A stretch of 64,000 nt of DNA, from assembly GCA_041556555.1 (NCBI GenBank), contig JBFFIE010000005.1, forward strand, positions 7,998 through 71,997, in the 5' to 3' direction. Below, in pieces: positions 2,048 to 47,483 of this stretch (positions are counted from its first letter, which is position 1; the number at the start of each line of letters is the position of its first letter). Origin of the DNA: Gammaproteobacteria bacterium. GTDB lineage: Bacteria; Pseudomonadota; Gammaproteobacteria; Eutrophobiales; Eutrophobiaceae. The position numbers and the translations under genes are program-made. Under the pieces are notes generated by a model that was not told the origin of the DNA, did no database searches, and was given only the letters and a program-made list of their open reading frames with translations.

Positions 2048-2404
<357 letters not shown>

Positions 2405-2422
2405 AATTGGGGGGCTTGGAAA

Positions 2423-3712
2423 ATGCAATCGAAATTGGGGAAAAGCTTATTATTGTTGGGCCTTGCGCTGACATCCGCGGGGGTGTGTGCTGCGGAGGAG
2501 GCGATTAATGGCGCCAACACATCCTGGATTCTGACATCCACGGCGCTGGTTCTGTTTATGACAATCCCGGGTCTGGCCCTGTTTTATTCCGGGTTGGTCA
2601 GGCACAAGAATGTGCTGTCGGTATTAATGCAATGTTTTACCATCACCTGCCTAGTGTCGATCCTGTGGATGGTTTTTGCTTACGGTCTGGCCTTCGGCGA
2701 TGGCGGCAGCGCGAACAGCATGGTCGGGGGTGGCAAGCTGTTCATGGACGGGATCGGTCTGAACAGTGTCAGTGGCGACATACCCGAAACTGTCTTTTTC
2801 ATGTTCCAGATGACCTTTGCGATCATCACACCGGCCCTGATTGTGGGTGGGTTTGCCGAGCGCATGAAATTCTCGGCAGTCATCTGGTTCACCACTTTGT
2901 GGCTGGCCCTGGTCTATGCGCCGATCTGTCACTGGGTCTGGGGCGGTGGCTGGCTGGCTGACCGCGGTTTCATGGACTTTGCCGGTGGTTCCGTGGTGCA
3001 TATTAATGCTGGTGTCGCTGCCGTGGTTGCTGCGGTTTATATTGGCCGACGCCGGGGTTTTCCGGAAACTGCTATGCCACCGCATAACATGACGTTGACC
3101 GTGGCCGGGGCCTCCATGCTCTGGGTCGGCTGGTTCGGTTTTAATGCCGGCAGTGCGCTTGCCGCTGGAACCAGTGCCGGGATGGCCATGGTGGTTACAC
3201 ACATTTCAGCAGCCGCGGGTTCGCTGGCCTGGATGGCCTGTGAATGGATTCGTTACGGCAAACCCAGTGTCCTGGGAATCGTAACCGGTATGGTTGCCGG
3301 ACTGGGCACCATTACTCCGGCGTCCGGTTTTGTTGGTCCAGTAGGTGGTCTGATCATCGGGATATCAGCCGGTGTAATCTGCTACTTCGCTACCCAGTTT
3401 ATGAAGCGGGCACTGAAGATCGACGATTCACTTGATGTCTTCCCGGTCCACGGTGTGGGCGGGATGCTAGGTACGTTACTCACGGCTGTATTTGCTGCGG
3501 AATCACTGGGTGGACTGGGTCTGGAAACCAGCATCTCCGCGCAACTGGCTACCCAGTTCACTGGTGTTATTGCCACCGTGGTCTGGTGCGGGGCTATAAC
3601 TCTGTTGATACTGTTCCTTATCGACAAGGTGCTTGGTATCCGTGTGACCCCGGATCAGGAGACTGAGGGCCTGGATGTGACCCAGCACAATGAACGGGGC
3701 TATATTCTTTAA
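2423..3712 (+). CDS. amtB: Ammonium transporter, canonical AmtB type with signal peptide
   Basis: FQMTFAIITPAL, HWVWGGG, DFAGGSVVH, DDSLDVFPVHG. Confidence 0.96.
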   Translation: MQSKLGKSLLLLGLALTSAGVCAAEEAINGANTSWILTSTALVLFMTIPGLALFYSGLVRHKNVLSVLMQCFTITCLVSILWMVFAYGLAFGDGGSANSMVGGGKLFMDGIGLNSVSGDIPETVFFMFQMTFAIITPALIVGGFAERMKFSAVIWFTTLWLALVYAPICHWVWGGGWLADRGFMDFAGGSVVHINAGVAAVVAAVYIGRRRGFPETAMPPHNMTLTVAGASMLWVGWFGFNAGSALAAGTSAGMAMVVTHISAAAGSLAWMACEWIRYGKPSVLGIVTGMVAGLGTITPASGFVGPVGGLIIGISAGVICYFATQFMKRALKIDDSLDVFPVHGVGGMLGTLLTAVFAAESLGGLGLETSISAQLATQFTGVIATVVWCGAITLLILFLIDKVLGIRVTPDQETEGLDVTQHNERGYIL

Positions 3713-21327: not shown

Positions 21328-24021
21328 TTATTTTCTAAATAGCTTGTAACCTTCGGACATCCATAAAAGGCTGGTTGCCAGTAGCAGGAGAAACAGTCCT
21401 TCCTGCAGGCTTACCGGTTTTATTACCAGTATGTCACTGAGTACGGGAAGGTGCATGGCCGTGATATGTAATAACAAGGCTGCTATAACACTTATCACCA
21501 GAAAGACATTTTGAAACGGATTATGAAGGAACACGGATCGTCGTTCAGACCGGCTGTTAAAGGCCTGGATATTTTCAAACAATACCATTAATAACAATAC
21601 AACATTTCGGGCCTCGTCTACTGTATGCCCGTTGGCAAGCAGTGATGCGAACATAACAAAAGAGATGGAACCAATTACCAGTGCGGATGAAAAGACACGT
21701 TCGATCATTATCCTGTTGAAAATCGGTTCTCTTGGGGATCGCGGTTTTTGTTTTAATTCATCGCCTTCCCCGGGCTCAAAAGCAAGTGCCACGTCCTGTA
21801 TGCCATTGGTCACCAGGTTTAACCAGAGCAATTGTACAGCTGTTAAGGGAATAGTGTGGCCGGACAGTAAAGAGAGAATAAATAAAACAATTTCTCCGAC
21901 GCCGGTCGATAATAATAAAAAGATTACCTTTCTTACATTGGCGTATGCAATACGCCCCTCTTCTATTCCAGAGATGATGGATGCGAAATTATCATCTGTA
22001 ATAATCATGTCCGAGGTTTCGCGTGCCACATCGGTCCCTTTTTTGCCCATTGCAACACCCACATGAGATGCACGCAGTGCCGGTGCGTCATTGGCACCAT
22101 CCCCGGTTACTGCAACAAAGTGACCGAGACGCTGTAATGATTGCACAATCTGTAATTTATGGTGTGGTTCAACCCGTGCAAATACTTTTGCATCTTTGAC
22201 CAGGTCATCAAAAGCTGTTTGATCAAATTCTTTGAGGAGATGATTGATTTGTTGCCCGGTAACGACTTCTTCCAGAGAGTCAGCCATACCCAGATCACGC
22301 GCAATCGCCAGTGCTGTATTCGGATGATCTCCCGTAATCATCGCGACTGATATTCCCGCATCCCGGCACTTTTTAACTGCCTCAACGGCCTCCTTGCGGA
22401 GTGGATCGATCATCCCCACCAGCCCCAGCAGGCATAATCCCTTCAGATGTTCAGGCGAAAACACCTGCTTACCACGTAAAGGGATTTCTCCATCCGCCAC
22501 TGCCATGACCCGGAAACCCTGATCTGCCATGCTTTTTGCCTGAGATATGATGTTTTCCCGGTTAATTGGTACCTCACCATCCATCGTTAGCATGTGATCG
22601 CACATCATGACGACCTGTTCGAATGCGCCTTTGACATGCGCAATCGTCGATTTATTATTTTTATTTAATGCAGCAGCGTATCTCTGTTCTGATTCATAGG
22701 GAATACTGGATATTTCCGGAAACTGATGTAATGACTCCTGTCTGGTAATTCCTGCTTTGTGGGCCATGACCAGGAATGCAATATCGACTGCATCCCCGTG
22801 ACCAGTCCATAAACCATCATGGCGGCCCAGGAAACCTTCATTTGCCAATACAGATGCTTTTGCGATTCTCTGGATAATTGATTGAAGATTTTTATCCGGG
22901 CGATTCCCGTTAAATTTGAACATTCCTTCCGGTATTAACCCTGCGCCGGAGATGTTCAGCTCTTCACCAGCGGGCAGGGCCAGTTTCCTTACCGTTAGTT
23001 CGTTTACAGTGAGTGTCCCAGTCTTGTCCGTTGCAATGAAAGTGCACGAACCCAGTGCTTCAACGGTCACCAGTTTTCGTGCAATCACATTTCGTTTTGC
23101 CATTCGTCTCATGGCAATTGAAAGTGCAATAGTCATTGCAACAGGCAAGCCTTCGGGAATGGCGGCCACTGCCAGGGCTGCGATAACCATAATGACCTGA
23201 ATCCAACCCATCCCCTGGGTGTATGCAGCAATGCCGATTAATAGTGACGCCATAAGCACCAGGACGGTGACTCGGAAGGTAAATCTCTCCATGCGGATCA
23301 ATAGCGGCGGCTTGGTCTTGCGACGGGCAAGTAATGTCTCTGCGATCTGTCCGAGCTGGGTATGGATACCGGTATGGGAAATCACACCTACCGCACGTCC
23401 TGTTGTTACCAGTGTGCCTGTAAATGCCATATTGCTTCGGTCGGCGACAGGTGTGTCAGCTTTCAAAATATCTTCATGGTTCTTGCTTACCGGTAATGAT
23501 TCACCGGTAAGTAAGGATTCATCGATCTGAAGATTTCGGGATTCAAGCAGGCGAAGATCTGCCGGAACCCTGTCACCGGATTCAAGTAGAGTAATATCAC
23601 CGGGCACGAGCTTGTCGGTTTCAATTTCATAGGCTTCCTGGTCACGTATAACCTTTGCATGTAGATTAATCAGTTGATGCAGGGATTCAGCACTTTTCTG
23701 AGCGGAATACTCCTGTATGGCACCGATAATTGAATTCAAAATTAGCACGATCATTATGAAAGAGGCATCCGAGTACTTTTCAATCGCTAATGAAGCCACT
23801 GCTGCGACAAGCAGGATATAAATCAATGGATTCAGGAATTGCTTGAAAAAAATGATGATTGGCCCAGGTAGACGAGGTCTGGGGAGTACATTCATGCCGT
23901 ATGTTGCCAGTCGTTGATTTACTTCATCCAGTGCGAGGCCATGTCGACTGCTGTTTAATGCCTTCAGGACATCCGCCGTGGCTGCGGCATGAGGTTGAAT
24001 TTGATTTTTATTAAAATTCAT
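21328..24021 (-). CDS. P2A-type cation-transporting ATPase
   Basis: LTGES, IPEGLP, DKTGTLT, TGDGANDAPAL, LWLNLVTNG. Confidence 0.93.
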   Translation of the reverse strand: MNFNKNQIQPHAAATADVLKALNSSRHGLALDEVNQRLATYGMNVLPRPRLPGPIIIFFKQFLNPLIYILLVAAVASLAIEKYSDASFIMIVLILNSIIGAIQEYSAQKSAESLHQLINLHAKVIRDQEAYEIETDKLVPGDITLLESGDRVPADLRLLESRNLQIDESLLTGESLPVSKNHEDILKADTPVADRSNMAFTGTLVTTGRAVGVISHTGIHTQLGQIAETLLARRKTKPPLLIRMERFTFRVTVLVLMASLLIGIAAYTQGMGWIQVIMVIAALAVAAIPEGLPVAMTIALSIAMRRMAKRNVIARKLVTVEALGSCTFIATDKTGTLTVNELTVRKLALPAGEELNISGAGLIPEGMFKFNGNRPDKNLQSIIQRIAKASVLANEGFLGRHDGLWTGHGDAVDIAFLVMAHKAGITRQESLHQFPEISSIPYESEQRYAAALNKNNKSTIAHVKGAFEQVVMMCDHMLTMDGEVPINRENIISQAKSMADQGFRVMAVADGEIPLRGKQVFSPEHLKGLCLLGLVGMIDPLRKEAVEAVKKCRDAGISVAMITGDHPNTALAIARDLGMADSLEEVVTGQQINHLLKEFDQTAFDDLVKDAKVFARVEPHHKLQIVQSLQRLGHFVAVTGDGANDAPALRASHVGVAMGKKGTDVARETSDMIITDDNFASIISGIEEGRIAYANVRKVIFLLLSTGVGEIVLFILSLLSGHTIPLTAVQLLWLNLVTNGIQDVALAFEPGEGDELKQKPRSPREPIFNRIMIERVFSSALVIGSISFVMFASLLANGHTVDEARNVVLLLMVLFENIQAFNSRSERRSVFLHNPFQNVFLVISVIAALLLHITAMHLPVLSDILVIKPVSLQEGLFLLLLATSLLWMSEGYKLFRK

Positions 24022-33875: not shown

Positions 33876-33903
33876 TAACTATTGATGTGATTTCCAATTT
33901 CAG

Positions 33904-33934
33904 GATTGCAGTACTGCAGAATGGTACTGCAATC
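33904..33934 (+). terminator. Hairpin after copK
   Basis: GATTGCAGTAC-N9-GTACTGCAATC followed by T-rich tract. Confidence 0.65.
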
Positions 33935-34044
33935 TTCATTTATTTCGTTGGTATTCTGATTAATATTACAAAATGTTTAATTAATTTTAATGGGTTATTG
34001 TAAATGCTGGTGATAAATATGAACAACAATCTCTTCCAAGAATA

Positions 34045-34179
34045 ATGACGTTTCCAATATTTGTGTATTTCTACATAAGACTTGCAAGAAAGGAAGAGGA
34101 AGAAGCACTCCAAGGACTTGGAGAAAAATATAGAAATTATATGAAAACAACACCGGCGTTTATTGCATCATTAACGTAA
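34045..34179 (+). pseudogene. C-terminal remnant of isoprenylcysteine carboxyl methyltransferase-family membrane protein
   Basis: MTFPIFVYFYIRLARKEEEEALQGLGEKYRNYMKTTPAFI resembles the family C-terminus (FP..Y.RLA..EE...G..Y..Y..TPAF); N-terminal part absent. Confidence 0.6.
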
Positions 34180-34257: not shown

Positions 34258-35592
34258 ATGACAGACCCACACACAAATTCAAGGGATAAAGACAGAAAAA
34301 CCATATATAAAACAAATAGCCTTTCACTCACTGGCGCTGTATCAATGGGTACCGGTGTCATGATCGGGGCAGGTATCTTTGCCCTGACCGGGCAAATTGC
34401 AGAATTGGCGGGCAGCGCATTCCCTCTGGTCTTTCTAGCAGCGGCTATTGTCACCGCATTCAGTGCCTATTCTTATGTAAAAATGTCAAATGCATATCCT
34501 TCTGCAGGTGGAATTGCAATGTTCCTGGAGAAGGCTTATGGCAAGAGCACTGTGACAGCTTCTTGTGGCTTGTTGATGTATTTTTCGATGGTTATTAATG
34601 AAAGCCTGGTTGCCAGGACTTTTGGTACCTATTCGTTGCAGTTGTTTGATATTGAACAAACCAGTTGGCTTGTTCCACTTCTTGGTGTTTGTCTTCTTAT
34701 ATTTGCTTTTATTGTAAATATTTCAGGTAATCGATTCATAGGCACTTTTTCCCTGATAATGGCATTGGTCAAAATCGGGGGTATCTCCATTTTTGCCATT
34801 GTTGGTTTATGGCTTTCCGGTTTGTCGTTTGAAAGTATTTCAACAGATCCTTCAAGTACTGGAGCTTCAGGATTTCTCGCAGCAATGGCATTGGCAATTT
34901 TGTCTTATAAGGGGTTCACAACAATTACCAACAGCGGTTCTGAAATCAGGGATCCCCATCGTAATGTTGGCCGGGCAATTATTATCTCAATTGCAATCTG
35001 CGTTGTTATCTATTTTTTGGTAGCACTGGCTGTTGCAGGGAATCTTGAGCTGTCAGAGATTATCAAAGCGAGGGATTTTGCTCTGGCAGAAGCATCACGG
35101 CCCGCACTGGGTAATTATGGTTTATGGTTTACGGTTGTGTTGGCAATTATTGCTACCGTTTCCGGAATAATTGCCAGCACCTTCGCTGTATCACGAATGC
35201 TTGCCATGCTGACGGATATGAAACTTGTTCCGCACAGTCATTTTGGCATGCCAGGAAGTATTCAAAAACACACGCTTGTTTATACTGTTGTGCTTGCCAT
35301 CGTCTTAACGGCATTTTTTGATCTCAGCCGCATCGCTTCCCTGGGGGCAATTTTTTATATCATCATGGACATTGCAGTACATTGGGGAGTTCTTAATCAC
35401 TTAAAAAAAGAGCTTCATGCCAATGTGATCATCTTATTAACAGCAATTATATTTGACATTATTGTTCTGGCCGCTTTTCTATGGATAAAAGCATCTACAG
35501 ATATATTTATTGTTTATGCATCGCTACTGGCTATAATTTTTATTTTCCTGGGAGAAAAGGTTTTTCTTTGGTTCAGGCCGGGAACCGGTTAG
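34258..35592 (+). CDS. APC-family permease
   Basis: GTGVMIGAGIFAL, PSAGG, YKGF..ITNSG.E; many hydrophobic segments. Confidence 0.88.
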   Translation: MTDPHTNSRDKDRKTIYKTNSLSLTGAVSMGTGVMIGAGIFALTGQIAELAGSAFPLVFLAAAIVTAFSAYSYVKMSNAYPSAGGIAMFLEKAYGKSTVTASCGLLMYFSMVINESLVARTFGTYSLQLFDIEQTSWLVPLLGVCLLIFAFIVNISGNRFIGTFSLIMALVKIGGISIFAIVGLWLSGLSFESISTDPSSTGASGFLAAMALAILSYKGFTTITNSGSEIRDPHRNVGRAIIISIAICVVIYFLVALAVAGNLELSEIIKARDFALAEASRPALGNYGLWFTVVLAIIATVSGIIASTFAVSRMLAMLTDMKLVPHSHFGMPGSIQKHTLVYTVVLAIVLTAFFDLSRIASLGAIFYIIMDIAVHWGVLNHLKKELHANVIILLTAIIFDIIVLAAFLWIKASTDIFIVYASLLAIIFIFLGEKVFLWFRPGTG

Positions 35593-35633: not shown

Positions 35634-36992
35634 ATGAAAATTAGATTTCTTGGCGCCGCAGAGACTGTAACCGGTTCAAGGTTTCTGGTTGAAACCGAAG
35701 AGAAACGAATCCTGATCGATTGTGGTCTGTTTCAGGGCTTGAAAAAATTACGTCTGCGAAACTGGGCGCAATTCCCGGTCGATCCCTCCTCGATCGATGC
35801 CGTGGTACTCACACATGCACATATTGATCATAGCGGCTACCTGCCCGCACTTGTCAAGCAGGGTTTTGCAGGAAAAATCTATTGCACTCCGGCTACGGAT
35901 GCCCTCTGCAGGATCTTATTACCTGATTCCGGCTATCTCCAGGAAGAGGAAGCAAATAACGCAAACAAGTATGGTTACAGCAAACATAAACCGGCATTGC
36001 CACTTTATACACGGGATGATGCAGAAAATTGCCTTGAGTATTTTGAGACTGTTTCCAGTGAAAAGGAATTTCATCCGGCCAGGGGATTCAGTATTAAATT
36101 TAGGCCTGTCGGTCATATACTCGGGGCAGCCAGCGTGTACCTGACATTTAATGATAAAATAGTTCTGTTTACCGGTGATATCGGCAGGCCAAAAGACCCG
36201 GTAATGAAGCCGCCTGCAGACATTGAAGAAACTGATTATCTTGTTGTTGAATCAACCTATGGAGACAGGAAGCATCCCCGAACCAGCCCAAAAAAAGAAT
36301 TGGAGAGGGCAGTAAACTATGCCATTAAAAGGGGAGGGGTCGTACTTATTCCCAGTTTTGCCGTAGGACGTGCCCAGACCATAATGCATTTGATTAGTGA
36401 ACTCACTGAAGAGGGAAAGCTGCCCAATATCCCGGTTTTTCTGGACAGCCCGATGGCGATTGATGCCACCGAAACTTTTTGTTATTTCAGGGATCAGCAT
36501 CGCCTTTCAGAAGAACAATGTCGCTTGATGTGTGACAGGATAACCTATACTCGAAGTGTCGAGGAATCTAAAGCTATTGCAACTCAACTTGCGCCCAAGA
36601 TTATTATTTCAGCAAGTGGAATGCTGACCGGCGGGAGAGTGGTTCATCATTTGAAACACTATCTGGGAAGGAGAGAAAATGTGGTTGTGTTTGCCGGTTA
36701 CCAGGCAGCCGGCACCCGTGGTGCAGCCATGCAGGCAGGTGCAGAGAGCGTGAAGATTCATGGCGAATATTATCCTGTCAGGGCAAAACTGGTAACAATT
36801 GATGCCTTATCAGCACACGCTGATTATTCAGAAATAATTAATTGGTTATCTCATCTTAAACATCCACCCAAAAAAACATTTATTGTTCACGGTGAGGCCC
36901 ATAGCCAGGATGCGTTTCGGCGGCACATTAAGGATTCACTGGGATGGCAGGCAACGATACCTGAACAGGGTGATAGCGTTAAGCTGGACTAG
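35634..36992 (+). CDS. MBL-fold beta-CASP nuclease (YSH1-like)
   Basis: THAHIDH, GHILG, FTGD, VESTYG, PSFAVGR, SAHAD, VHGE. Confidence 0.92.
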   Translation: MKIRFLGAAETVTGSRFLVETEEKRILIDCGLFQGLKKLRLRNWAQFPVDPSSIDAVVLTHAHIDHSGYLPALVKQGFAGKIYCTPATDALCRILLPDSGYLQEEEANNANKYGYSKHKPALPLYTRDDAENCLEYFETVSSEKEFHPARGFSIKFRPVGHILGAASVYLTFNDKIVLFTGDIGRPKDPVMKPPADIEETDYLVVESTYGDRKHPRTSPKKELERAVNYAIKRGGVVLIPSFAVGRAQTIMHLISELTEEGKLPNIPVFLDSPMAIDATETFCYFRDQHRLSEEQCRLMCDRITYTRSVEESKAIATQLAPKIIISASGMLTGGRVVHHLKHYLGRRENVVVFAGYQAAGTRGAAMQAGAESVKIHGEYYPVRAKLVTIDALSAHADYSEIINWLSHLKHPPKKTFIVHGEAHSQDAFRRHIKDSLGWQATIPEQGDSVKLD

Positions 36993-37004
36993 ACAGCACG
37001 AAAA

Positions 37005-38531
37005 ATGAGTACACAAGCCACAGAAATCTCCAAAAATACCCTGCGGGTCAGGCGTCTGGGCATTGATACATACAGTAAGCCAGTGATCTATATGCGTCAT
37101 GATTGTCACATCTGTAAATCCGAGGGCTTTGAGGCATTGTCCAGGGTCTCGGTCTCTACGGATAAAGAAACCATTATCGCCTCACTGAATATTGTTAATA
37201 ACGAGCTATTAAATCCGGGTGAAATAGGATTATCAGATGCCGCATGGAGAATGTTGGCTCCTGATGATAACCAGGCTGTTTACCTTTCACACCCGGATCC
37301 GGTTACATCACACAGTCACGTACGCGCAAAAGTCTATGGCCACTCTTTATCTGATCATCAGCTAACGCAGATTATGCAGGATATAGTCAAAGGTCATTAT
37401 GATGATATCTATCTTTCGGCATTTATAACCGCCTGTGCGGGCAGTAGGCTGAACTTTGATGAAATTGTTTCGTTGACAAAATCCATGATAAATGTGGGCA
37501 GGCAACTTTCCTGGGGCAACGAGATCGTTGTTGATAAGCATTGTATTGGTGGTTTACCCGGTAACAGGACTACCATGATCATAGTTCCCATCGTGACATC
37601 GTTCGGACTTGTCATGCCAAAGACCTCGTCCCGTGCCATTACCTCTCCCGCAGGAACAGCAGACGCAATGGAGATGCTCGCACCGGTCAATCTCTCGGTT
37701 GAGGAATTGCGTAATGTTATTGAAAAAGAAGGAGGGTGTATTATCTGGGGAGGATCGGTTTATCTGAGTCCTGCTGACGATATTTTAATTACAGTAGAGA
37801 GACAACTTGATATTGACAGCGAGGGACAGTTAATAGCATCGGTACTCTCGAAAAAGGTGGCTGCCGGCTCAACTCATGTCCTTATTGATATTCCGGTAGG
37901 CCCAACGGCCAAGGTACGTTCATTAAACCTGGCCAATGAACTGTCCAATTTGATGATAACCGTTGGTGAAGAAATCGGGTTGAATGTTCGTACAAAGATT
38001 ACGGACGGTAGTCAACCGGTCGGGCGTGGTATTGGCCCGGCGTTGGAAGCCCATGATGTCCTGGCAGTGTTACGTAATGATCCAGGCGCACCAGAAGATT
38101 TGAGGGAGAGAAGCCTTGAACTTGCCGGTGATATCCTTGAGATATCCGGGAAAGTGCCGGAGGGGAAGGGATATACTGAGGCAATGAAAGTGCTGGACTC
38201 AGGCGCCGCCCTGGAAAAATTCCGTTCCATCTGTGAAGCCCAGGGCGAGATTCGGGAACCGGGCAAGGCGAAATATTCCCGTGACGTTTGTGCGAAAGAA
38301 GCGGGTATTGTTAGTGATATTGATAACCGCAGACTTTCCTTGACGGCAAAACTTGCCGGCGCGCCTATTGCATCTACCGCTGGTATTTACCTCCATGTAA
38401 AATTGGGTTCAGTTGTTTCCAGTGACCAACCGCTATATACCATTTATGCAGAAGCACCGGGTGAACTTGATTACGCACTAGATTACATTTCTGCGCAGGA
38501 AGATATAATCACAATCAACCCGGACGGATGA
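37005..38531 (+). CDS. Thymidine phosphorylase family, AMP-phosphorylase-like long form
   Basis: N-terminal extension with CHIC; DKHCIGGLPGNRTT, PKTSSRAITSPAGTAD, QPVGRGIGPALEA. Confidence 0.9.
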   Translation: MSTQATEISKNTLRVRRLGIDTYSKPVIYMRHDCHICKSEGFEALSRVSVSTDKETIIASLNIVNNELLNPGEIGLSDAAWRMLAPDDNQAVYLSHPDPVTSHSHVRAKVYGHSLSDHQLTQIMQDIVKGHYDDIYLSAFITACAGSRLNFDEIVSLTKSMINVGRQLSWGNEIVVDKHCIGGLPGNRTTMIIVPIVTSFGLVMPKTSSRAITSPAGTADAMEMLAPVNLSVEELRNVIEKEGGCIIWGGSVYLSPADDILITVERQLDIDSEGQLIASVLSKKVAAGSTHVLIDIPVGPTAKVRSLNLANELSNLMITVGEEIGLNVRTKITDGSQPVGRGIGPALEAHDVLAVLRNDPGAPEDLRERSLELAGDILEISGKVPEGKGYTEAMKVLDSGAALEKFRSICEAQGEIREPGKAKYSRDVCAKEAGIVSDIDNRRLSLTAKLAGAPIASTAGIYLHVKLGSVVSSDQPLYTIYAEAPGELDYALDYISAQEDIITINPDG

Positions 38532-39427
38532 TAATGCAAATGGATGCTACTGTTATTTCATTTGCAGATAACAAATCACTTGCCGGCCATATTGCAAACC
38601 AGTTAAACGCGGTTTATACAATTGCAATAGTCCATGAATTTCCTGACGGTGAATCCTGTGTACGGATAGATCCTTCAAAGATCTGTGACACGGTTTTTGT
38701 AATAAATTCGCTCTATCATCCTGACCGGCTGGTTTTGCCGTTGCTTTTCCTTGCAGAAACCTTGCGTGATTATGGCGGCAAGGAGATTACACTGGTTGCT
38801 CCTTATCTTGCCTATATGCGTCAGGACAAGCGTTTCAATGAAGGGGAGGGAATCAGCGCACATTATTTTGCCCGATTGATTTCAGAATATTTTGATGGAT
38901 TGGTTACTGTTGATCCTCACCTGCATCGGATCAAGTCTCTCGATGAAATTTATACCATCCCTTCGCATGCAATACACGCTGCACCTGTAGTGGCTGACTG
39001 GATTCACAATAATATAAAACAGCCCTTGTTAATTGGCCCTGACAGTGAAAGCGAACAATGGGTAAAGGATCTGGCACAAAGGGCACAATCACCTTATGTC
39101 GTTCTGGAAAAAATCCGGTATGGTGACAATAAAGTTGAGGTCAGTGTTCCGCAAGTTCAGAAATGGTTAAAACATACCCCTGTGTTATTTGACGATATTA
39201 TTTCTACCGGCAGGACTATGATTGAAACGATCAAGCATTTGAAACAGCCTGACTTGGCAGCACCGGTTTGCATTGGTGTGCATGGTATTTTTTCAGGCAA
39301 TGCTTACCAGGAGTTGGTTGCTGCTGGTGCCAGTAAAGTAGTTACCGCAAATACCATTGAGCATCACTCAAACGAGATTAATATTGCTATACCGATCGTC
39401 CAGGCAATTAATCAGCTAAAATTTTAG
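38528..39427 (+). CDS. Divergent ribose-phosphate pyrophosphokinase family protein
   Basis: FPDGE, PYLAYMRQD, DPHLH, GPDSES, DDIISTGRT; overlaps phosphorylase stop. Confidence 0.88.
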   Translation: MIMQMDATVISFADNKSLAGHIANQLNAVYTIAIVHEFPDGESCVRIDPSKICDTVFVINSLYHPDRLVLPLLFLAETLRDYGGKEITLVAPYLAYMRQDKRFNEGEGISAHYFARLISEYFDGLVTVDPHLHRIKSLDEIYTIPSHAIHAAPVVADWIHNNIKQPLLIGPDSESEQWVKDLAQRAQSPYVVLEKIRYGDNKVEVSVPQVQKWLKHTPVLFDDIISTGRTMIETIKHLKQPDLAAPVCIGVHGIFSGNAYQELVAAGASKVVTANTIEHHSNEINIAIPIVQAINQLKF

Positions 39428-39486
39428 TGAATTCAATGAATAATTATTTTCAGGAATGATCATGATTTGAATATATATCATGGCTT

Positions 39487-40617
39487 ATGTTTCGTTTAAT
39501 TTATAGACAGCTCCTGTACGATCGTTACCGTACACTTTTGACTGCGCTGGCCATCGGGGCGGTTATCAGCCTGATGCTCATACTTGACGGGTTTCAGCAA
39601 GGGTTATACCACCAGCTAGGGATGACTGTAAAAAACAGGGGAGCCGATTTGATTCTTTCCCAGGCTGGTGTATCCAATCTAATTGCCTCACGTTCAATTA
39701 TTCCCCAGCTTACCCGGCTTGATGTAGAAGAAATTGATGGTGTGAAGAATGCTTATCCTTTGACCAGTATATCGGCTATCTATCGAAAAAATGACAGGAA
39801 AAATCCTGTTTATGTATTTGTTTATGATGTAAAAGGCGGCCCCTTGTCATTTGTCGATGGAAATTTCATAGATGGGCCGCGTGAAATCATTATTGATCAG
39901 GCTCTGGCGAAGCTATATGACCTGGCACCAGGTGATTCGTTTGTTTTAACTGATTTCGAATTTACTATAGCAGGGATTTCAGAAAATACTTCGGCATTAT
40001 TTACACCATTTGCCTTTATCAAATTTGATGATTTGATCGATTTTTATCTGGAATCGGATATTGCCGCAGATATTACCACCTTTCCTTTGCTGAGTTACCT
40101 GCTGGTAGAGCTTGATGACAACGTAGATAAGGAGGCAGTCAGCCGGGCAATTGAAACCTCTATACCGGATGTAGATGTATTTTTACCGGAAGAACTTGCT
40201 AAAAACGATGTACAACTGGGACATGAATTATTTGGGCCTATTCTAAATCTACTTGTTCTAATTGCTTATATTATTGGCCTGTTAGCTATTGGTATTATTA
40301 TGTTTACAACTGCTCATGAGCGTAAGCGGAGTCTGGCAGTAGTCAGGGCATTGGGTTTCCCTGTTAGTAAAATCGCCATATCAGTTACAATTGAAACGGC
40401 AATATTGGTACTAATTGCATTCCCTGTTGGAATGGTTATAGCGCAGATAATCACTGGTTTGATTACCTGGGTTGCCCCGGTTTATCTTGTTTTACCCCTG
40501 GATCCATCCACGCTACTCAGGACATTATCAGCCTGCATTGTTCTTTCCTTTTTAGGGGCTTTCATTGCCATATATATCATTTCAAGAATTGAACCTGAGA
40601 TTGCCTTCAGGAGTTGA
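39487..40617 (+). CDS. ABC transporter permease (MacB/FtsX family) 1
   Basis: RTLLTALAIG, large periplasmic loop, ERKRSLAVVRALG. Confidence 0.85.
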   Translation: MFRLIYRQLLYDRYRTLLTALAIGAVISLMLILDGFQQGLYHQLGMTVKNRGADLILSQAGVSNLIASRSIIPQLTRLDVEEIDGVKNAYPLTSISAIYRKNDRKNPVYVFVYDVKGGPLSFVDGNFIDGPREIIIDQALAKLYDLAPGDSFVLTDFEFTIAGISENTSALFTPFAFIKFDDLIDFYLESDIAADITTFPLLSYLLVELDDNVDKEAVSRAIETSIPDVDVFLPEELAKNDVQLGHELFGPILNLLVLIAYIIGLLAIGIIMFTTAHERKRSLAVVRALGFPVSKIAISVTIETAILVLIAFPVGMVIAQIITGLITWVAPVYLVLPLDPSTLLRTLSACIVLSFLGAFIAIYIISRIEPEIAFRS

Positions 40618-41729
40618 TCATGTTGCGCTGGGCATTCAAAAGTTTAATTGCTGAACCCCTGAGTTTTTTATTAACTGCATTGGTGGTTGGTGTAGCGTTG
40701 GTACTGGTCATTTTTTTCGAGGCAGTATTTGCCGGGGAATCAGAAAATATTATTGCTTATCCCAAAAATATAAATCCTGATGTATGGGTGATGCAACGGG
40801 GCATATTTAATATGCATATGGCGACGTCATTCATCTGGGACTGGAAGCGGGACCGTGTTTCCGGAATTGAAGGAGTAGAAAAAGTTACTCCAATTCTTTA
40901 TATGAATAGTATCGTTGAAGCAGGGAACAAACGTTGGTTTTCATTTGTAGTCGGTTTAGTAGAAAACGATAAAAGGGCAGGTCCCTGGAAAATGGCCAGT
41001 GGAAAACCTTATCCGGATGATGGGGAGGCTGTCATACCGAAAATCCTTGCAGATAAGACCGGACTAAAACTGGGTGATGTTGTTCGTATTGCCAATGAAA
41101 CATTTAAAGTAGTGGGACTCAGTGAAGATACATTTTCAATGGCAAATTCCATTGCCTTTATTACATATTCTGATTTAAGGGAGATCATGTCATTGACAGG
41201 TTCAGACAGCTATCTTTTGGTGGATGCTGTACCTGGAACAGATCCGGCACTGTTAGCTGAACGTATTCGAAACGAAGTGGAGAAGATCAATGCCCTTCCG
41301 TCAAATGAATTTATTAAAAATGACAGGGAGCTGGCCATGCAAATGGGCGTAGAATTAATCGGTATTATGACTATAATCGGTGCCGCTCTTGCTATCTCGC
41401 TTTCCATGTTTATGTTGTATGTTTTTGCAGCCAGGAAACGGCGTGATCTGGCAATCCTCAAGGCTTTGGGTGTTAGTAATGGTGCTGTGTATATTAGCAC
41501 AATATTTCAGGCATCCTGCTTGGCAATCACGGGGCTGGTGATTGCACTTGTGCTTGTTTATGCTGCCATACCACTAACCAATTCTTTTGCACCAGAGATT
41601 ACCTTGCAGATCACCGGTTCTTCATTGCTCAGGCTAAGCTTGGTAACAATTTTAGTCGCTATACTGGCCTCACTAATACCAGTACGTCAGGTGATGAAAA
41701 TTGATCCCCTATTGGCATTCCAGCGTTAA
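40614..41729 (+). CDS. ABC transporter permease (MacB/FtsX family) 2
   Basis: DVWVMQ, RRDLAILKALG, IDPLLAF. Confidence 0.85.
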   Translation: MIMLRWAFKSLIAEPLSFLLTALVVGVALVLVIFFEAVFAGESENIIAYPKNINPDVWVMQRGIFNMHMATSFIWDWKRDRVSGIEGVEKVTPILYMNSIVEAGNKRWFSFVVGLVENDKRAGPWKMASGKPYPDDGEAVIPKILADKTGLKLGDVVRIANETFKVVGLSEDTFSMANSIAFITYSDLREIMSLTGSDSYLLVDAVPGTDPALLAERIRNEVEKINALPSNEFIKNDRELAMQMGVELIGIMTIIGAALAISLSMFMLYVFAARKRRDLAILKALGVSNGAVYISTIFQASCLAITGLVIALVLVYAAIPLTNSFAPEITLQITGSSLLRLSLVTILVAILASLIPVRQVMKIDPLLAFQR

Positions 41730-41740
41730 CAGACAATATC

Positions 41741-42613
41741 ATGATAAATCATATTCTCAGGGTTGATCATTTGACTAAGGATTTTGGTAGTGGTAATGCT
41801 AAGGTTCGAGCAGTTGATGATGTATCTTTAACGGTATTACAAGGGGAACTGGTATTAATTATGGGGCCATCCGGTTCCGGTAAGACAACCTTGTTATCCA
41901 TGTGTGGTGGTTTATTGCGTCCCACAGCTGGAAATATTTTTCTGGAACAAATCCAGATTACTGGACTGAATGAAAAACAGTTACCAACAATTCGGGCACA
42001 GAAAGTGGGTTTTATATTCCAGGCATTTAATCTTCTGGATGCCTTGACAGTTGAAGAAAATATTTTATTACCTGCCAGCCTGGTGAAGCAAAACAGATCA
42101 TATGTCAGAAGTCGTGCGCAGGAGTTAATATCTACTCTGGGTCTGAAATCCAGAATACACGCCAAGCCGCAAACCTTGTCAGGCGGGGAAAAACAACGAG
42201 TGGCTATTGCCCGTGCTCTGATTAATTCTCCACCATTAATCCTGGCAGATGAACCGACTGGTAATCTCGATTCTCACAGTGGACAGGAAGTAATGATGAT
42301 TTTGCATGATATTGTCCGTGATCAGGGTTGTTCTGTGGTGATGGTGACACATGATCCACGGGTGGAGGAAATGGCAGACAGAATCCTCTGGCTGGAAGAT
42401 GGCGCACTGCGTGATAGAAAATCTGAAAAACACAACTGGGTTCATGATCCTGTGTGTGGTATGCGAGTGGATGAATGGACAGCCGAAATATTCGAAGAAT
42501 ATGATAATAAGCAATTTGTATTTTGTTCCAATCGATGCCGGGAACGCTTCCGGGAGGACCCATCAAGATACAGTAAACAGGATCCACAAATTTCAAGCGA
42601 TCCCATCTCATGA
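41741..42613 (+). CDS. ABC ATP-binding protein with C-terminal YHS domain
   Basis: [25 protein letters not shown]; C-terminal DPVCGM..FCSNRC..F..DP..Y. Confidence 0.9.
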
Positions 42614-43459: not shown

Positions 43460-44680
43460 ATGAAGTTACCAGCCATTACTTCTTTTTTGTCGTCAGCTTG
43501 TTTCCTTTGTGTCCTCACTATCCCAGTTCAGACTTATGGGGCAGAGGAAGATACCGCTGCCATGAAATCCCGTATTGAGGCACTGGAAAGGGAGCTGTCT
43601 GCAATAAAAGAAAAACTTGAAGAGCAAACCCAGGAAGCTGCCACCAAGGAAGAGTTAGAGGCTGTAAAAGAAGAAGTTGAAGTGGCAAAAGCTGAAAAAG
43701 ATGAGTGGAAATATTACGACTCAAAAGTCCACCTGGCAGGTTATGGCGCGGTTGGATTTGTAAATGATGATCCTGAAAACGATCGTTTTAATCAAGTATC
43801 TTTTAATCCCATCTTCCACTATCAATACAAGAACTTGATTATGCTCGAGGCAGAATTGGAGATAGCGATAGATGGTGACGAAACGGAATTTGGACTCGAG
43901 TATATGACTGTGGACTGGTTTATAAATGACTATATGGCCCTGGTAGCAGGTAAATTTTTAAGCCCTATTGGGCAATTTCGACAGAATCTTCATCCAGCGT
44001 GGGTAAATAAACTGCCCTCTGCCCCGTCCGGTTTTGGCCATGAACAGGCTGCCCCGACTGCTGATGTCGGTGTCCAGTTAAGGGGTGGGGTCCCGATCTT
44101 CAGAGGATATGGCAATTATGCAGTTTTCGTCACGAATGGGCCGGAATTGGATGAGGACGGGGGTGAAATCCATGCCGTCCATTCCGAAGGTTCTACCAGT
44201 AATGAGGATGACAATTATCTTTTCGGGGGGCGCATCGGCATTATACCAATACCTAGACTAGAAATTGGTGGCTCTGTTGCGATTGGAGACGTCGCATTGG
44301 AAGGTGAAGATGATCGTGATTATGAGGTATACGGGTTTGATGCCAGCTGGAAATGGCGAGATCTTGATGTCAGGGGTGAATACGTAAAACAGGAGGTTGG
44401 TTCTCTGGCAACCAGTGTGGCACCGGAGAAACAGGATTGGGAAGCCTGGTATGCACAAGCTTCTCACAGTATATTATCAACTAATTTCGAGGCCGTAGTA
44501 CGTTATTCAGATTACACATCGACTCACGCTAGTGTGGAGCAGGAGCAATGGGCACTAGGTCTCAATTATCTTTTTGCACCTCACGCAATAGCTAAATTCT
44601 CATATGAATTTAATGATGGGGCAGAAGGTGAGCCTAGCAATGATGATCTTGTATTTTTACAATTTGCATACGGATTTTAA
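43460..44680 (+). CDS. Outer-membrane beta-barrel (porin-like) with N-terminal coiled coil
   Basis: Signal peptide, coiled coil, amphipathic strands, C-terminal QFAYGF. Confidence 0.8.
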   Translation: MKLPAITSFLSSACFLCVLTIPVQTYGAEEDTAAMKSRIEALERELSAIKEKLEEQTQEAATKEELEAVKEEVEVAKAEKDEWKYYDSKVHLAGYGAVGFVNDDPENDRFNQVSFNPIFHYQYKNLIMLEAELEIAIDGDETEFGLEYMTVDWFINDYMALVAGKFLSPIGQFRQNLHPAWVNKLPSAPSGFGHEQAAPTADVGVQLRGGVPIFRGYGNYAVFVTNGPELDEDGGEIHAVHSEGSTSNEDDNYLFGGRIGIIPIPRLEIGGSVAIGDVALEGEDDRDYEVYGFDASWKWRDLDVRGEYVKQEVGSLATSVAPEKQDWEAWYAQASHSILSTNFEAVVRYSDYTSTHASVEQEQWALGLNYLFAPHAIAKFSYEFNDGAEGEPSNDDLVFLQFAYGF

Positions 44681-44691: not shown

Positions 44692-44997
44692 ATGATGAAT
44701 CATATATATAAAGTTATTTTGTATGTATTTAGCCTATTATTAGTTTTTTCGTCACCCATGTCTGCGTTTGCAGCAGATGATCTCGATAGCGCAACATTCG
44801 CACGAGGTGCACAGCAATGGGCAAATAATTGTGATCGTTGTCATAATATGCGTGATCCCAGAGAGTTCCGTGATGACCTTTGGGAACCAATCGTTGCCCA
44901 CATGCGAATCAGGGGAGGATTAACCGGGCAACAGGCACGTGACATTCTCTATTTCCTGCAGTCATCGAATTATAGTGCGTCTGCGCAATCTAAGTGA
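44692..44997 (+). CDS. Small monoheme c-type cytochrome
   Basis: Signal peptide, CDRCH heme motif, HM candidate distal ligand. Confidence 0.85.
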   Translation: MMNHIYKVILYVFSLLLVFSSPMSAFAADDLDSATFARGAQQWANNCDRCHNMRDPREFRDDLWEPIVAHMRIRGGLTGQQARDILYFLQSSNYSASAQSK

Positions 44998-45035: not shown

Positions 45036-45062
45036 GCCAGATATCCGTCCTGGATATCTGGC
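45036..45062 (+). terminator. Hairpin after cytochrome c
   Basis: GCCAGATATCC-GTCCT-GGATATCTGGC then TTGTTATTT. Confidence 0.7.
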
Positions 45063-45405: not shown

Positions 45406-46077
45406 TTATTTAATTTGATGGATAAATTCCTGGATCTTGCTGGGATCCATCATTGTGGTCCAGCTTTTGGCACCTGCCTTGATTGAATTGGCTTCCCAAT
45501 CCTTGAGGCGCCTGCGATAAACCTCAGGATTGGAACTGTCGGCAGTTAGCTTGATGATATTCATAGCCGCAATGTCAATCCCGCTGAATTCACCCTCGCC
45601 GAATTTCCGCACAACGCCCTTAGGCAGGTCTTCTTGCATGTCACTGAAGATGAACATTACCTGGGTGCCGGCCTTGGTTTCTTTCAAGTAGTCGGAACAG
45701 AGCATCATGGCGCCACTGATATCGGTGTGCCTGGACTCCGTCAAGTTACCTGCAAATTCATCGAGAGTTGAAGAAAATGCCAGCTTCTGAGCGTTGGATT
45801 CTGATGGCTTATAATCCAGCACCAGTTTCTTCTGCAGGTTTTCTTCCGAATAACTGTTACTGTCTATAGTAATCAGAAAGATACTGTCACCGGGTATCAT
45901 CTCCGGCAGGATCCCTGCCTTGATTATTCGGGCGACACTGTGCTTTTCCTGGGCGTAGGTGCCGGAGACATCGGCCAGTGTACAGTAGGCTGTTTCATAG
46001 GCGTCATTGTCTGTACAACCCACAGCGCTAAATCCAAAAACGATCAAAATCAAAAGGTGCTTAGTCAGGTATTTCAT
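45406..46077 (-). CDS. VWA-domain lipoprotein
   Basis: Lipobox AVGC; MIDAS-like DVSGT, TDISGA, IFSDM. Confidence 0.75.
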   Translation of the reverse strand: MKYLTKHLLILIVFGFSAVGCTDNDAYETAYCTLADVSGTYAQEKHSVARIIKAGILPEMIPGDSIFLITIDSNSYSEENLQKKLVLDYKPSESNAQKLAFSSTLDEFAGNLTESRHTDISGAMMLCSDYLKETKAGTQVMFIFSDMQEDLPKGVVRKFGEGEFSGIDIAAMNIIKLTADSSNPEVYRRRLKDWEANSIKAGAKSWTTMMDPSKIQEFIHQIK

Positions 46078-46082
46078 GATTA

Positions 46083-47483
46083 TTATGTCCTGGCTTGCAT
46101 GTTTCCAATCAGGTTTGCTATCTGTGACGGGATAATGATGTAGGCGTCAAAAAGATGCGACAAGAGGTTAAACACGGCTTCAATAATATATGCGAAAGCA
46201 TCGCTGATATGGCCCAGCAGGTTCATTATTAATATGAGAATCCGGGTAAAGGCATGTTGGCTGGCCTCGATGAACATCTCCAGGGGTACAGCAACCATGG
46301 CCAGGATCCAGGGCAGCACAAAACCCAGTGTTGCCTGACCGATTACAGTGATTCGTGAGCTGGTTTCATTCAATATCACCCCGGCTGTTTCACCTGCCAG
46401 ACTGCGGTCCAGAGCAGCATCTGCTTCTGCCAGTGCTTCACGTAATATAGCCAGAGAAGCTTCAACAGAAGCCAGGAATAAAAGACCGAATAAAGAGGCA
46501 TACAAAAGTATTTTGCGTTTACTCCGCATCATGCCGGCAATCTGTGGGAAGATGTTGGTGATGCCCAGTGATTCCATCAGGAAAATTCCTAACACGATTT
46601 CAAGCGTCACGATTACCATTGCCGAGATCTCTGACACCATCATGCCGCCGATACGAGTGCCGGCGGGAACCAGTTCAGACATGGGCAATGCAATCAGCTG
46701 GAAGTTGATAATGGCGCCAAAAAAAGCAACGCCAAGAACAAACAGTGAAAAGATAAACAACTTGGTCATCTTGCTTGAAAGCATATCAATGGACTCTGGT
46801 CCACCGGCTGCGATCTTTTCAAACTGGGTCATGTACTTGTCAATACGTCCGCTGGTTTCCAGTACCGATCCCACCTTTTTATTTATATCATGACTGAGTT
46901 TTTCAAGCCGACGCCACACGGGTGCCATTGATGCCAGGATTTTATGCCGTTTTGCGGCCGTCTCCCTGAATTCCGACAGTGCTTTTTTCTCTCCGGCAAC
47001 GGCTGATTTATGAATTTCACCCAGCATCTTTTCGATGATTCGATCGCCGTTTGAGGTTTGCGCACGAGCGATGGTTTCGACGACTTCACTCCAGCCCGGT
47101 GCTTCCGGCGTTACCTGCCCACATTCCTTGTAGTCAGCTTCTATGTGTGTAATGTTGTCATCCAGTTTCAGTTGCAGTTTTGGGTAGTCTGAAAGGTGTT
47201 TGGCATACCCGGCTTCCACTGAGCGGAATTCCTGCATGATTTTTTCCTGGGCACTGGCGACACCGGATTCCAGCAGAACCTTGCGATCTTTTTCGCGCAT
47301 GGCTTCTGCAACGGATTTTGCCCAGAGTGCAGTTTTCCTCAGGCCTCCCGCAGTACCGGTCATCAGGCCTTCTATGGCCTTGTGCATGGGTACCCGGGCA
47401 AAGTAAAAAAAGACCATGCTGATGACAACCCAGATGGCGATGGAAAGACCGGGCATCGATGGAATTAGGTAAAGACTTTCCAC
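46083..47483 (-). CDS. Hypothetical membrane protein with long helical domain
   Basis: 466-aa ORF, N-terminal TM plus several C-terminal TMs; GTG start after AGAGG; 5 nt from VWA gene. Confidence 0.75.
   Translation of the reverse strand: MESLYLIPSMPGLSIAIWVVISMVFFYFARVPMHKAIEGLMTGTAGGLRKTALWAKSVAEAMREKDRKVLLESGVASAQEKIMQEFRSVEAGYAKHLSDYPKLQLKLDDNITHIEADYKECGQVTPEAPGWSEVVETIARAQTSNGDRIIEKMLGEIHKSAVAGEKKALSEFRETAAKRHKILASMAPVWRRLEKLSHDINKKVGSVLETSGRIDKYMTQFEKIAAGGPESIDMLSSKMTKLFIFSLFVLGVAFFGAIINFQLIALPMSELVPAGTRIGGMMVSEISAMVIVTLEIVLGIFLMESLGITNIFPQIAGMMRSKRKILLYASLFGLLFLASVEASLAILREALAEADAALDRSLAGETAGVILNETSSRITVIGQATLGFVLPWILAMVAVPLEMFIEASQHAFTRILILIMNLLGHISDAFAYIIEAVFNLLSHLFDAYIIIPSQIANLIGNMQART

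Follow-up and report, generated by a model that had tools for sequence, protein, structure and literature searches.

We analysed a window of 64,000 nucleotides (nt) from contig JBFFIE010000005.1 of a Gammaproteobacteria bacterium, within which three adjacent genes encode a beta-CASP ribonuclease-type protein, a homologue of the archaeal nucleoside monophosphate (NMP) phosphorylases and an extra ribose-phosphate diphosphokinase (Prs). All positions are counted from the first nucleotide of this window, and the genes and features at the locus are listed in Table 1. The nuclease gene ends with a TAG stop at position 36992, and 12 nt (acagcacgaaaa) separate it from the ATG of the phosphorylase gene at 37005. 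The phosphorylase stop codon and the Prs start codon overlap in the sequence ATGA (38528–38531). A preliminary description of the locus had called the three genes coupled, with a 12-nt gap and a 4-nt overlap, and the open reading frame (ORF) coordinates agree with it. The triad is located within a stretch of lower GC content (0.41–0.48 versus 0.51–0.55), between cusCBA-copA-copK and the transfer-messenger RNA (tmRNA) gene.

Table 1. Genes, hairpins and FNR/Anr-type boxes at and around the triad, with window positions
Feature	Position	Strand	Matches and remarks
Perfect FNR/Anr-type box TTGATCTTAATCAA	33484..33497		79 nt upstream of copK-like ORF; nearest upstream box to the triad
Terminator-like hairpin, 15 pairs	33902-33936		Between the FNR box at 33484 and the permease-triad string
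APC-family amino-acid/polyamine-type permease	34258..35592	+	Pfam AA_permease_2; context, 41 nt upstream of the triad, co-directional
Beta-CASP metallo-beta-lactamase-fold ribonuclease-type gene, 452 amino acids (aa)	35634..36992	+	Pfam Lactamase_B, Beta-Casp, RMMBL; gene 1 of the triad
Archaeal-type NMP (AMP) phosphorylase homologue, 508 aa	37005..38531	+	NF003338, TIGR02645; nearest structure 4GA5/4GA6
Extra class-III-like Prs paralogue, 299 aa	38528..39427	+	NF005537; 1U9Y; ATGA-coupled to the phosphorylase
Two FtsX/MacB-type permease genes and an ABC ATPase with C-terminal YHS domain	39487..42613	+	Pfam; context, downstream of the triad, co-directional
Perfect FNR/Anr-type box TTGATCTAGATCAA	43386..43399		61 nt upstream of ORF 43460-44680
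Terminator-like hairpin, 12 pairs	45036..45062	+	First strong one 3' of the co-directional string starting at 34258

Families of the three proteins

The phosphorylase is annotated in databases as a 'thymidine phosphorylase family protein' and contains the Pfam domains Glycos_trans_3N, Glycos_transf_3 and PYNP_C, starting at residue 107. It exceeded the cut-offs of NF003338 (688.1 versus 434 bits) and TIGR02645 (600.9 versus 434.6 bits) and scored far below those of thymidine phosphorylase (TIGR02643; 150.2 versus 570.7 bits) and pyrimidine-nucleoside phosphorylase (TIGR02644; 220.9 versus 409 bits). NF003338 is itself titled 'thymidine phosphorylase'; among 14 control genomes it was over its cut-off only in the three archaea Methanocaldococcus jannaschii, Haloferax volcanii and Methanosarcina acetivorans, and not in Escherichia coli or Bacillus subtilis. 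The nearest solved structure is that of Thermococcus kodakarensis (4GA5/4GA6; E 3e-95, residues 48–494 aligned), whose NMP (AMP) phosphorylase TK0352 (4GA4/4GA5/4GA6) is 45% identical to the window enzyme over ~450 residues. Both enzymes score above the cut-offs of NF003338 and TIGR02645, the motifs KTSSRAITS-AGTAD and ADD occur in each, and their four-part architecture is the same, including an N-terminal extension: the alignment to 4GA5 begins at query residue 48 and chain residue 35, before the part that is retained in 4GA4, an N-terminally truncated construct. The motif PKTSSRAITSPAGTAD is present in the phosphorylase. The preliminary description had already noticed the extension and the KTSSRAITS motif and had placed the enzyme with the archaeal NMP phosphorylases instead of thymidine phosphorylase, an assignment that is supported here. 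Judged by its sequence, the protein is an archaeal-type NMP (AMP) phosphorylase homologue and not a thymidine phosphorylase. According to PMC9700705, the T. kodakarensis enzyme converts AMP, CMP and UMP to ribose-1,5-bisphosphate (R15P), and homologues in haloarchaea are confined to species with Rubisco.

The Prs protein contains the Pribosyltran_N and Pribosyltran domains, exceeds the cut-off of NF005537 (PRK07199; 380.6 versus 322 bits) and is closest, among solved structures, to the archaeal class III 5-phosphoribosyl 1-pyrophosphate (PRPP) synthase of M. jannaschii (1U9Y, E 1e-43). A housekeeping Prs is encoded elsewhere in the genome (contig C2, 390 bits), so the window Prs is an extra copy, and none of the 14 control genomes has a match over the NF005537 cut-off. 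Two motifs had led the preliminary description to call this Prs divergent, DDIISTG and GPDSES. Both are present, but only the second sets the protein apart: DDIISTG is not an oddity, because the archaeal class III structures 1U9Y, 4TWB and 3MBI carry the same motif. FPDGE, RQDK, DPH, GPD, K-x-R and DDIISTG of the window Prs align with 1U9Y and do not vary among 25 relatives, and the two proteins, which belong to the same length class, share FPD-E, RQDK, a PH motif, PD, K-x-R and DDIISTGGT. The window Prs differs from 1U9Y in being a member of the bacterial subfamily NF005537 and an extra copy tied to a phosphorylase. Specific to this subfamily and invariant in 25 relatives are GPD-x-ES-QW, PHLHR and K-x-R-x-x-D, in longer form GPD-x-ESEQW, DPHLHR and K-x-R-x-GD; the full set of invariant family motifs comprises FPD-E, RQD, PHLHR, GPD-ES-QW, K-R-D and DDI-S-T. 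Archaeal class III Prs enzymes are free of the ADP inhibition and phosphate dependence of the class I enzyme, and by analogy the class-III-type window Prs would be expected to escape these two constraints on the housekeeping class I enzyme. A complex prediction for phosphorylase and Prs, made with 25-row alignments, gave a score of 0.00 and was uninformative on binding.

The nuclease matches Beta-Casp (125 bits), RMMBL (66 bits) and Lactamase_B (62 bits) and keeps the motifs HAHIDHSG, GDIG, ESTYG, SAHAD and VHGE. Its closest solved relatives, at E values of 1e-68 to 2e-70, are the N-terminal part of Cas14 and 'Ribonuclease TTHA0252' of Thermus thermophilus, the latter presumably an RNase, as its Protein Data Bank (PDB) name has it. 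With TTHA0252 and the beta-CASP core of Cas14 it shares all metal-binding and beta-CASP motifs, and it is a predicted nuclease. We rejected an assignment to type VII CRISPR Cas14 (NF045584): the protein scored 417.9 versus the 800 bits required, matched profile positions 1–435 of 612 only and lacks the C-terminal extension of Cas14.

Linkage of phosphorylase and Prs, and PhnN as an alternative partner

To place the triad in a wider context, phosphorylase relatives were collected from one genome per species, which yielded at least 595 confirmed relatives from Proteobacteria, Bacteroidota, Acidobacteria, Nitrospirota, Verrucomicrobia and others. Gene order was recorded around the best 80 of these (the cross-phylum loci) and counted on 79, with L011, a 95%-identical near-copy of the window, dropped. 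The Prs gene directly follows the phosphorylase gene on the same strand in 65 of the 74 loci with room for it, often with a 4-nt overlap. The nuclease gene directly precedes the phosphorylase gene in 41 of 73 loci, and the full triad was found in 35 of 68. A second sample comprised 400 genomes drawn evenly from the window's class (321 genera). Here the phosphorylase occurs in 75 genomes (69 genera) and the Prs subfamily in 75; both occur in 69, the phosphorylase alone in 6 (two of them at contig ends) and the Prs subfamily alone in 6. Where both are present, they are adjacent in the same order and on the same strand in 68 of 69 genomes. The genes therefore co-occur, a point on which the preliminary description had staked its reading, and the recurrence of triad and pair is far beyond chance.

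The preliminary description had also stated that the triad recurs in other bacteria. This is correct for the phosphorylase–Prs pair, which is strictly linked; the term 'triad' suggests a tighter association with the nuclease than we observed. Because the nuclease gene stands beside the pair in only part of the loci and genomes, we regard the pair as the conserved core and the nuclease as a frequent add-on. The nuclease family itself is found in 136 of the 400 class genomes (E 1e-60), in two tiers, one of ~46–55% identity and one more distant. The pair is missing from both other genomes of the window's own family, which represent sister genera, and we propose that the module is an accessory, horizontally spread unit.

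Prs is not the only partner of these phosphorylases. A HMMER search of 1.84 billion cluster representatives returned 787 phosphorylase relatives at E 1e-30 or better, and the longer proteins among the best 150 were compared with Pfam (17 proteins) and NCBIfam (17 proteins), 11 of them being in both sets. One of these, P0134 (724 aa), is a natural Prs–phosphorylase fusion, with 378.8 bits on NF005537 and 607 bits on NF003338. Of the 16 other long relatives in the NCBIfam set, 14 carry an N-terminal PhnN domain over the cut-off of TIGR02322 (160–208 versus 156 bits; P0150, P0168–P0170, P0176, P0178, P0184, P0192, P0200, P0215, P0236, P0264, P0268 and P0269); of the remaining two, one scored 125 bits on this profile and one has no PhnN domain. 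The PhnN of E. coli converts R15P to PRPP (PMC9700705, describing Hove-Jensen 2003), and the title of the 2003 paper, as cited there, names a role of PhnN in NAD (nicotinamide adenine dinucleotide) biosynthesis. PhnN has a P-loop, guanylate-kinase-like fold with no homology to Prs, yet in relatives of the window phosphorylase it occupies the partner position of Prs. A long open frame in G359 was rejected as a further PhnN fusion, since its BLASTP match to P0150 covers the phosphorylase part only. Four phosphorylase homologues in the Pfam set (P0143, P0171, P0182 and P0220; 912–1017 aa) are interrupted in the a/b domain by an intein with a LAGLIDADG endonuclease.

The fusion proteins were then used to scan metagenomes, where 80 loci were recovered. 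Seven are of the PhnN type (L099–L103, L157 and L177), in two of which (L103 and L157) phnN is not fused but stands as a gene of its own, overlapping that of the phosphorylase. Prs is absent from all five PhnN-type loci with at least 1.9 kb of downstream sequence, and PhnN is absent from all 73 other metagenome loci, which belong to a more distant clade and have Prs directly downstream in 43 of the 51 with room. Among the class genomes, PhnN was found in 3 of 6 genomes with the phosphorylase and without Prs (in G267 it lies 106 nt away, divergently oriented), in 4 of 69 with both (one below the cut-off) and in 10 of 325 without the phosphorylase, a complementarity that rests on small numbers. 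PhnN is thus missing from 65 of the 69 class genomes with the pair, as it is from the window genome. Prs and PhnN are mutually exclusive, alternative partners of the phosphorylase.

The genes upstream of the PhnN-type loci add a further link. In all six with at least 1 kb of upstream sequence, the gene directly upstream encodes a PRPP-consuming enzyme of NAD synthesis: quinolinate phosphoribosyltransferase (NadC) in L099, L101, L102, L103 and L177, and nicotinate phosphoribosyltransferase (PncB), together with a PncA-like, isochorismatase-family gene of the nicotinamidase type, in L157. Because PhnN makes PRPP from R15P and NadC and PncB use PRPP, these operons can be read as a sequence of three reactions, in which NMP and inorganic phosphate would give base and R15P, R15P and ATP would give PRPP, and PRPP with quinolinate or nicotinate would give nicotinate mononucleotide. 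The arrangement looks like an undescribed feeder that would lead from NMPs through PRPP into NAD synthesis.

A tree was built from 139 phosphorylase sequences. With fragments and proteins containing inteins excluded, these were 81 full-length representatives, the phosphorylase parts of 14 PhnN-fused proteins and of P0134, two proteins with overlapping phnN, and 25 genomic and 16 metagenomic Prs-linked sequences. Clade A (support 96) contains the metagenomic Prs-linked sequences with the PhnN-type sequences nested inside, 17 of which form one group (support 99), while L157 falls instead with Prs-linked sequences (support 82). Clade B (support 96, 37 sequences) holds the window phosphorylase, and clade C (support 97, 60 sequences) holds all 35 that exceed the AMP_phos cut-off; B, C and the Prs fusion group together with a support of 96. 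On this tree, the phosphorylase has switched partner between Prs and PhnN among close relatives. The window enzyme is bracketed, because the one characterized member of clade C makes R15P and clade A is tied to R15P through PhnN.

A candidate route from nucleotides to PRPP

The best-documented property of the module is its link to low oxygen, which the preliminary description had not put forward as a finding. Genes around the module in the 80 loci point to this link, among them USP, PPK2, phosphoketolase, acetate kinase, PFK, class I aldolase, type II GAPDH, 2-hydroxyacid dehydrogenase and P-type ATPases, and so do two papers on Bradyrhizobium. In Bradyrhizobium diazoefficiens the same three families are encoded by bll3115, with a metallo-beta-lactamase (MBL) fold, bll3116, a Prs gene, and bll3117, of the thymidine phosphorylase family. 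Published expression data exist for this member of the module alone (PMC6515984, PMC9104804). All three genes are elevated in microoxia at the protein and RNA levels (PMC6515984). A FixK2 box at −74 precedes bll3117-bll3116-bll3115, which are predicted to form one operon and whose expression falls 6.6- to 30.6-fold in a fixK2 mutant (PMC9104804). The gene order there differs (phosphorylase–Prs–nuclease), and the likeness is by gene names in these papers, not by sequence. In neither paper is a function proposed for the three genes. A partial parallel is the low-oxygen-activated (lxa) locus of Burkholderia cenocepacia, in which BCAM0300, a 'metal-dependent RNase / MBL superfamily' gene with 30-fold induction at low oxygen, is followed by membrane protein and ABC transporter genes as in the window (PMC3721108). 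The lxa locus differs in that the genes listed for it in PMC3721108 include no phosphorylase or Prs, and this likeness is by description, not sequence.

In the window genome, perfect TTGAT-N4-ATCAA boxes occur 23 times versus 2.3 expected from composition, and an FNR-type regulator with C-x2-C-x5-C is encoded at the end of contig C34. The window holds all four boxes of its contig (C5), at 6073, 15136, 33484 and 43386, and three of these fall within the low-GC stretch. The region is matched at 99% or more by contigs of four metatranscriptome runs, which come from three studies of marine sediment and seawater. The phosphorylase/Prs junction is bridged by two of the contigs, and one (X15 record 5) spans 39392–39808 across the Prs/FtsX gap with 6 differences. 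Among the matches listed, none bridges the nuclease/phosphorylase gap, and several bins are uncovered. These contigs are weak evidence of expression, because RNA libraries can contain DNA.

The assembly (2.1 Mb, 98.2% complete) gave no RuBisCO_large match and no PhnN. No R15P isomerase was found in it either: the sole IF-2B-family gene is MtnA (445 bits), with 192 versus 314 bits on the R15P isomerase profile. Apart from trpD, the genome contains no other gene of the thymidine phosphorylase fold. The preliminary description had noted the absence of isomerase and RuBisCO from the window, which thus extends to the whole genome. By elimination, since RuBisCO, isomerase and PhnN are all missing, R15P made here would be without a known consumer unless the Prs paralogue or an enzyme yet to be recognized takes it.

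Taken together, we judge it reasonably probable that the module recycles nucleotide ribose, returning the sugar phosphate of NMPs to PRPP. Each enzymatic step of the scheme is a prediction. The beta-CASP enzyme would degrade RNA to 5'-NMPs, and the phosphorylase would cleave these with phosphate into free base and R15P, as suggested by the known activity of its 45%-identical archaeal homologues and by its position in the tree. The dedicated Prs paralogue would then form PRPP, either from R15P, as a stand-in for PhnN, or from ribose-5-phosphate (R5P) after loss of the 1-phosphate, and this PRPP would feed base salvage and the synthesis of NAD, histidine and tryptophan, with the module typically turned on under shortage of oxygen or energy. 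The route from RNA and NMPs to PRPP is the best supported of the readings considered and draws on fusion and operon evidence and not on analogy alone. A similar flow had been suggested in the preliminary description, with an 'odd' Prs making PRPP; it gains indirect support from the PhnN fusions and overlaps, the NadC/PncB context and the exclusion between partners, while the Prs is less odd than described there. The narrower proposal that NF005537 Prs-like enzymes functionally replace PhnN, converting R15P to PRPP, and are not ordinary R5P diphosphokinases is more doubtful, and we put it forward tentatively.

A number of observations weigh against the recycling scheme. The phosphorylase is below the cut-off of the AMP_phos equivalog (TIGR03327; 491.7 bits, and 491.5 in a repeat, versus 535), by which, and by its separate clade, it differs from TK0352. 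The tree itself comes from a quick IQ-TREE search with SH-aLRT (approximate likelihood-ratio test) support and a midpoint root only. All canonical R5P diphosphokinase residues are kept in the window Prs and its sequence demands no R15P, so R5P is the default substrate and R15P the hypothetical one; if R5P is used, the step from R15P to R5P is lacking, and neither a conserved phosphatase nor a conserved mutase turned up in the 80 loci. The nuclease adjoins the pair in only ~13 of the 75 phosphorylase-positive class genomes, is also found without the pair and, being missing from about half of the cross-phylum loci, is dispensable. A box with at most one mismatch occurs within 250 nt upstream in only 8 of 76 related loci. 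In the window, no FNR box is directly upstream of the permease (34258) or the nuclease (35634); oxygen control of this copy is plausible at most, because the boxes flank the gene string and a hairpin separates it from the nearest one (33484). Genes near the module include a YHS/HMBD heavy-metal P-type ATPase (40 of 80 loci), 2-hydroxyacid dehydrogenase (21), MFS transporter (20), PPK2 (14), USP (13), type II GAPDH (13), phosphoketolase (11) and acetate kinase (8), counts that are inflated and not independent because they include ~10 near-identical copies of a mobile cluster (Burkholderiales, Pseudomonas and Stenotrophomonas) and ~13 Flavobacteriaceae loci. Finally, a full-text literature search found no assay of any enzyme of the bacterial family.

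Several of the same neighbours speak for an alternative that we consider unlikely, in which the module would serve energy catabolism. Ribose phosphate from RNA and nucleotides would pass through the pentose phosphate pathway to phosphoketolase, acetyl phosphate and ATP in non-respiring cells, and Prs may run backwards (PRPP + AMP to R5P + ATP). Besides the phosphoketolase, acetate kinase and PPK2 genes counted above, type II GAPDH and 2-hydroxyacid dehydrogenase fit such a pathway, as do PFK and class I aldolase, which are found near the module in Flavobacteriaceae together with glucan phosphorylase; in B. diazoefficiens, FixK2 targets phosphoketolase and acetate kinase as well as the triad (PMC9104804). 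However, the window lacks these fermentation neighbours, as do most proteobacterial loci that are not part of one mobile cluster, and the module encodes no route from R15P to R5P or xylulose-5-phosphate. The PhnN fusions behind NadC and PncB also point to supply of PRPP, not its consumption.

Less probable still, the 'phosphorylase' could be a PRPP-dependent phosphoribosyltransferase like its fold-mate TrpD, with Prs or PhnN supplying the PRPP for transfer of ribose-5-phosphate to some other base or metabolite. PRPP is indeed the product common to both partners, and the motif KTSSRAITSPAGTAD lines up with KHGNRSVSSKSGSAD in the TrpD encoded by this genome, where pyrimidine nucleoside phosphorylase has KMSGRGLGHTGGTID. 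Binding of the 5-phosphate of an NMP would explain this likeness equally well, however, and the extensive identity to a known NMP phosphorylase, with an N-terminal domain common to both, argues for phosphorolysis, as does the fact that the substrate of PhnN, R15P, is the exact product of NMP phosphorolysis.

The preliminary description had kept nucleotide depletion in stress or phage defence in reserve, with nuclease and phosphorylase destroying RNA and NMP pools for abortive infection or dormancy. We regard this as very improbable. A nuclease beside a nucleotide-degrading enzyme, a patchy and horizontally spread distribution (75 of 400 genomes in 69 of 321 genera, with both sister genera lacking the phosphorylase) and a low-GC region adjoining the tmRNA gene would suit such a system; PADLOC-DB 2.0, however, left the phosphorylase without a match and gave only weak MBL-fold and phosphoribosyltransferase-fold matches (best E 5e-5), the neighbouring genes serve metabolism, stress and metal transport with nothing like a defence island among them, the PRPP-forming partner and the NadC/PncB context are anabolic, and the published regulation is by oxygen (PMC9104804). 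The defence option accordingly finds no support. Hardly credible is the possibility that the annotation is correct and a thymidine or pyrimidine nucleoside phosphorylase sits beside a second housekeeping Prs by chance: it has the database names and the NF003338 title in its favour, and against it the profile scores and archaeal controls given above, adjacency kept across phyla, the fusions and a normal Prs elsewhere in the genome.

As recycling to PRPP, the module would be a bacterial variant of the archaeal NMP-phosphorylase theme with its exit to PRPP instead of RuBisCO; it differs from the 'NMP shunt' of the archaeal pentose bisphosphate pathway in that the partner of the phosphorylase is Prs, not R15P isomerase and RuBisCO. 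PRPP supply is conventionally the job of a single essential Prs, and R15P metabolism is seen as an archaeal speciality and a side-reaction of phosphonate use. The distribution of the module, in nearly one-fifth of the class genomes and at least 595 species records across many phyla, and its low-oxygen induction in a rhizobial symbiont contrast with that picture. If the route from NMP through R15P to PRPP is real, it would be widespread in bacteria (~1/5 of the sampled class genomes) and would carry the ribose phosphate of RNA to PRPP, bypassing R5P, when respiration fails. Conversion of RNA-derived nucleotides to PRPP would explain how NAD and nucleotide pools are kept up in non-growing, oxygen-starved bacteria, and thousands of 'thymidine phosphorylase family' and 'ribose-phosphate pyrophosphokinase' annotations would be corrected. 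The elements new here are PhnN as a phosphorylase partner in a sister clade, NadC or PncB upstream of it, the Prs–phosphorylase fusion and the exclusion between Prs and PhnN. None of the papers returned by the literature search gives the bacterial pair a function or mentions a PhnN–phosphorylase fusion, in line with the preliminary description, which knew of no demonstrated function. A 2026 preprint defines new bacterial classes of PRPP synthetase, in its excerpted parts without operon context (PMC13252144), and the pair is not mentioned in the excerpts of PMC9104464 and PMC12071387.

Surroundings of the triad

The genes flanking the triad in the window vary among relatives. A relative of the upstream permease is near the module in only 2 of 80 loci (L011 and L050), so it is not a conserved partner, and the downstream arrangement of FtsX/MacB and ABC-YHS genes recurs only in the near-identical relative L011. 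The ABC ATPase of this group (41741–42613) ends in a YHS domain of the metal-binding type, and the same domain is found on module-associated P-type ATPases elsewhere. Upstream of the permease, a short open frame at 34037–34179 resembles, when read by eye, the C-terminal end of an isoprenylcysteine carboxyl methyltransferase (ICMT)-family protein. At this position the ICMT-family ORF of L011 is intact (210 aa) and is accompanied by an extra gene for a flavin adenine dinucleotide (FAD)-dependent oxidoreductase; because the L011 copy is intact, the frame in the window looks like a remnant.

In relatives the module is carried on mobile copper/hypoxia islands. Mobility of the window's own low-GC region is not established, because a 28-nt pattern for the tmRNA 3' end, with up to 3 mismatches allowed, revealed no second copy, and we found no convincing direct repeats around the region and no integrase among the Pfam matches of its surroundings. 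Elsewhere, a near-identical gene string of ~21 kb is found in L063, L067, L068, L075, L078, L081, L088 and L089 and, with variations, in L086. Its hosts are Burkholderiales, Variovorax, Hydrogenophaga, Stenotrophomonas, Pseudomonas, Achromobacter and Pigmentiphaga, and its order is PPK2, P-type ATPase, MFS, triad, DUF6629, 2-hydroxyacid dehydrogenase, ABC1 kinase, type II GAPDH and MgtC/DUF4010, which suggests a recently spread mobile element. The DUF6629 gene that follows Prs in this proteobacterial cluster and the 214-aa gene that follows it in Flavobacteriaceae were considered as one family and rejected, having no homology to each other.

Other genes in the window were noted in passing. The low-GC stretch also contains a type II P-type cation ATPase (Cation_ATPase_N/C) at 21328–24021 on the minus strand, relatives of which (32–37% identity) adjoin the phosphorylase in L016, L041, L046 and L080. 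Between the module string and the tmRNA gene are three ORFs (223, 466 and 101 aa) without a Pfam match at the thresholds used, at 45406–47483 (minus strand) and 44692–44997 (plus strand). Near the start of the window (207–3712), two tandem glnK-amtB-type pairs, each of a P-II protein and an ammonium transporter, stand in succession.

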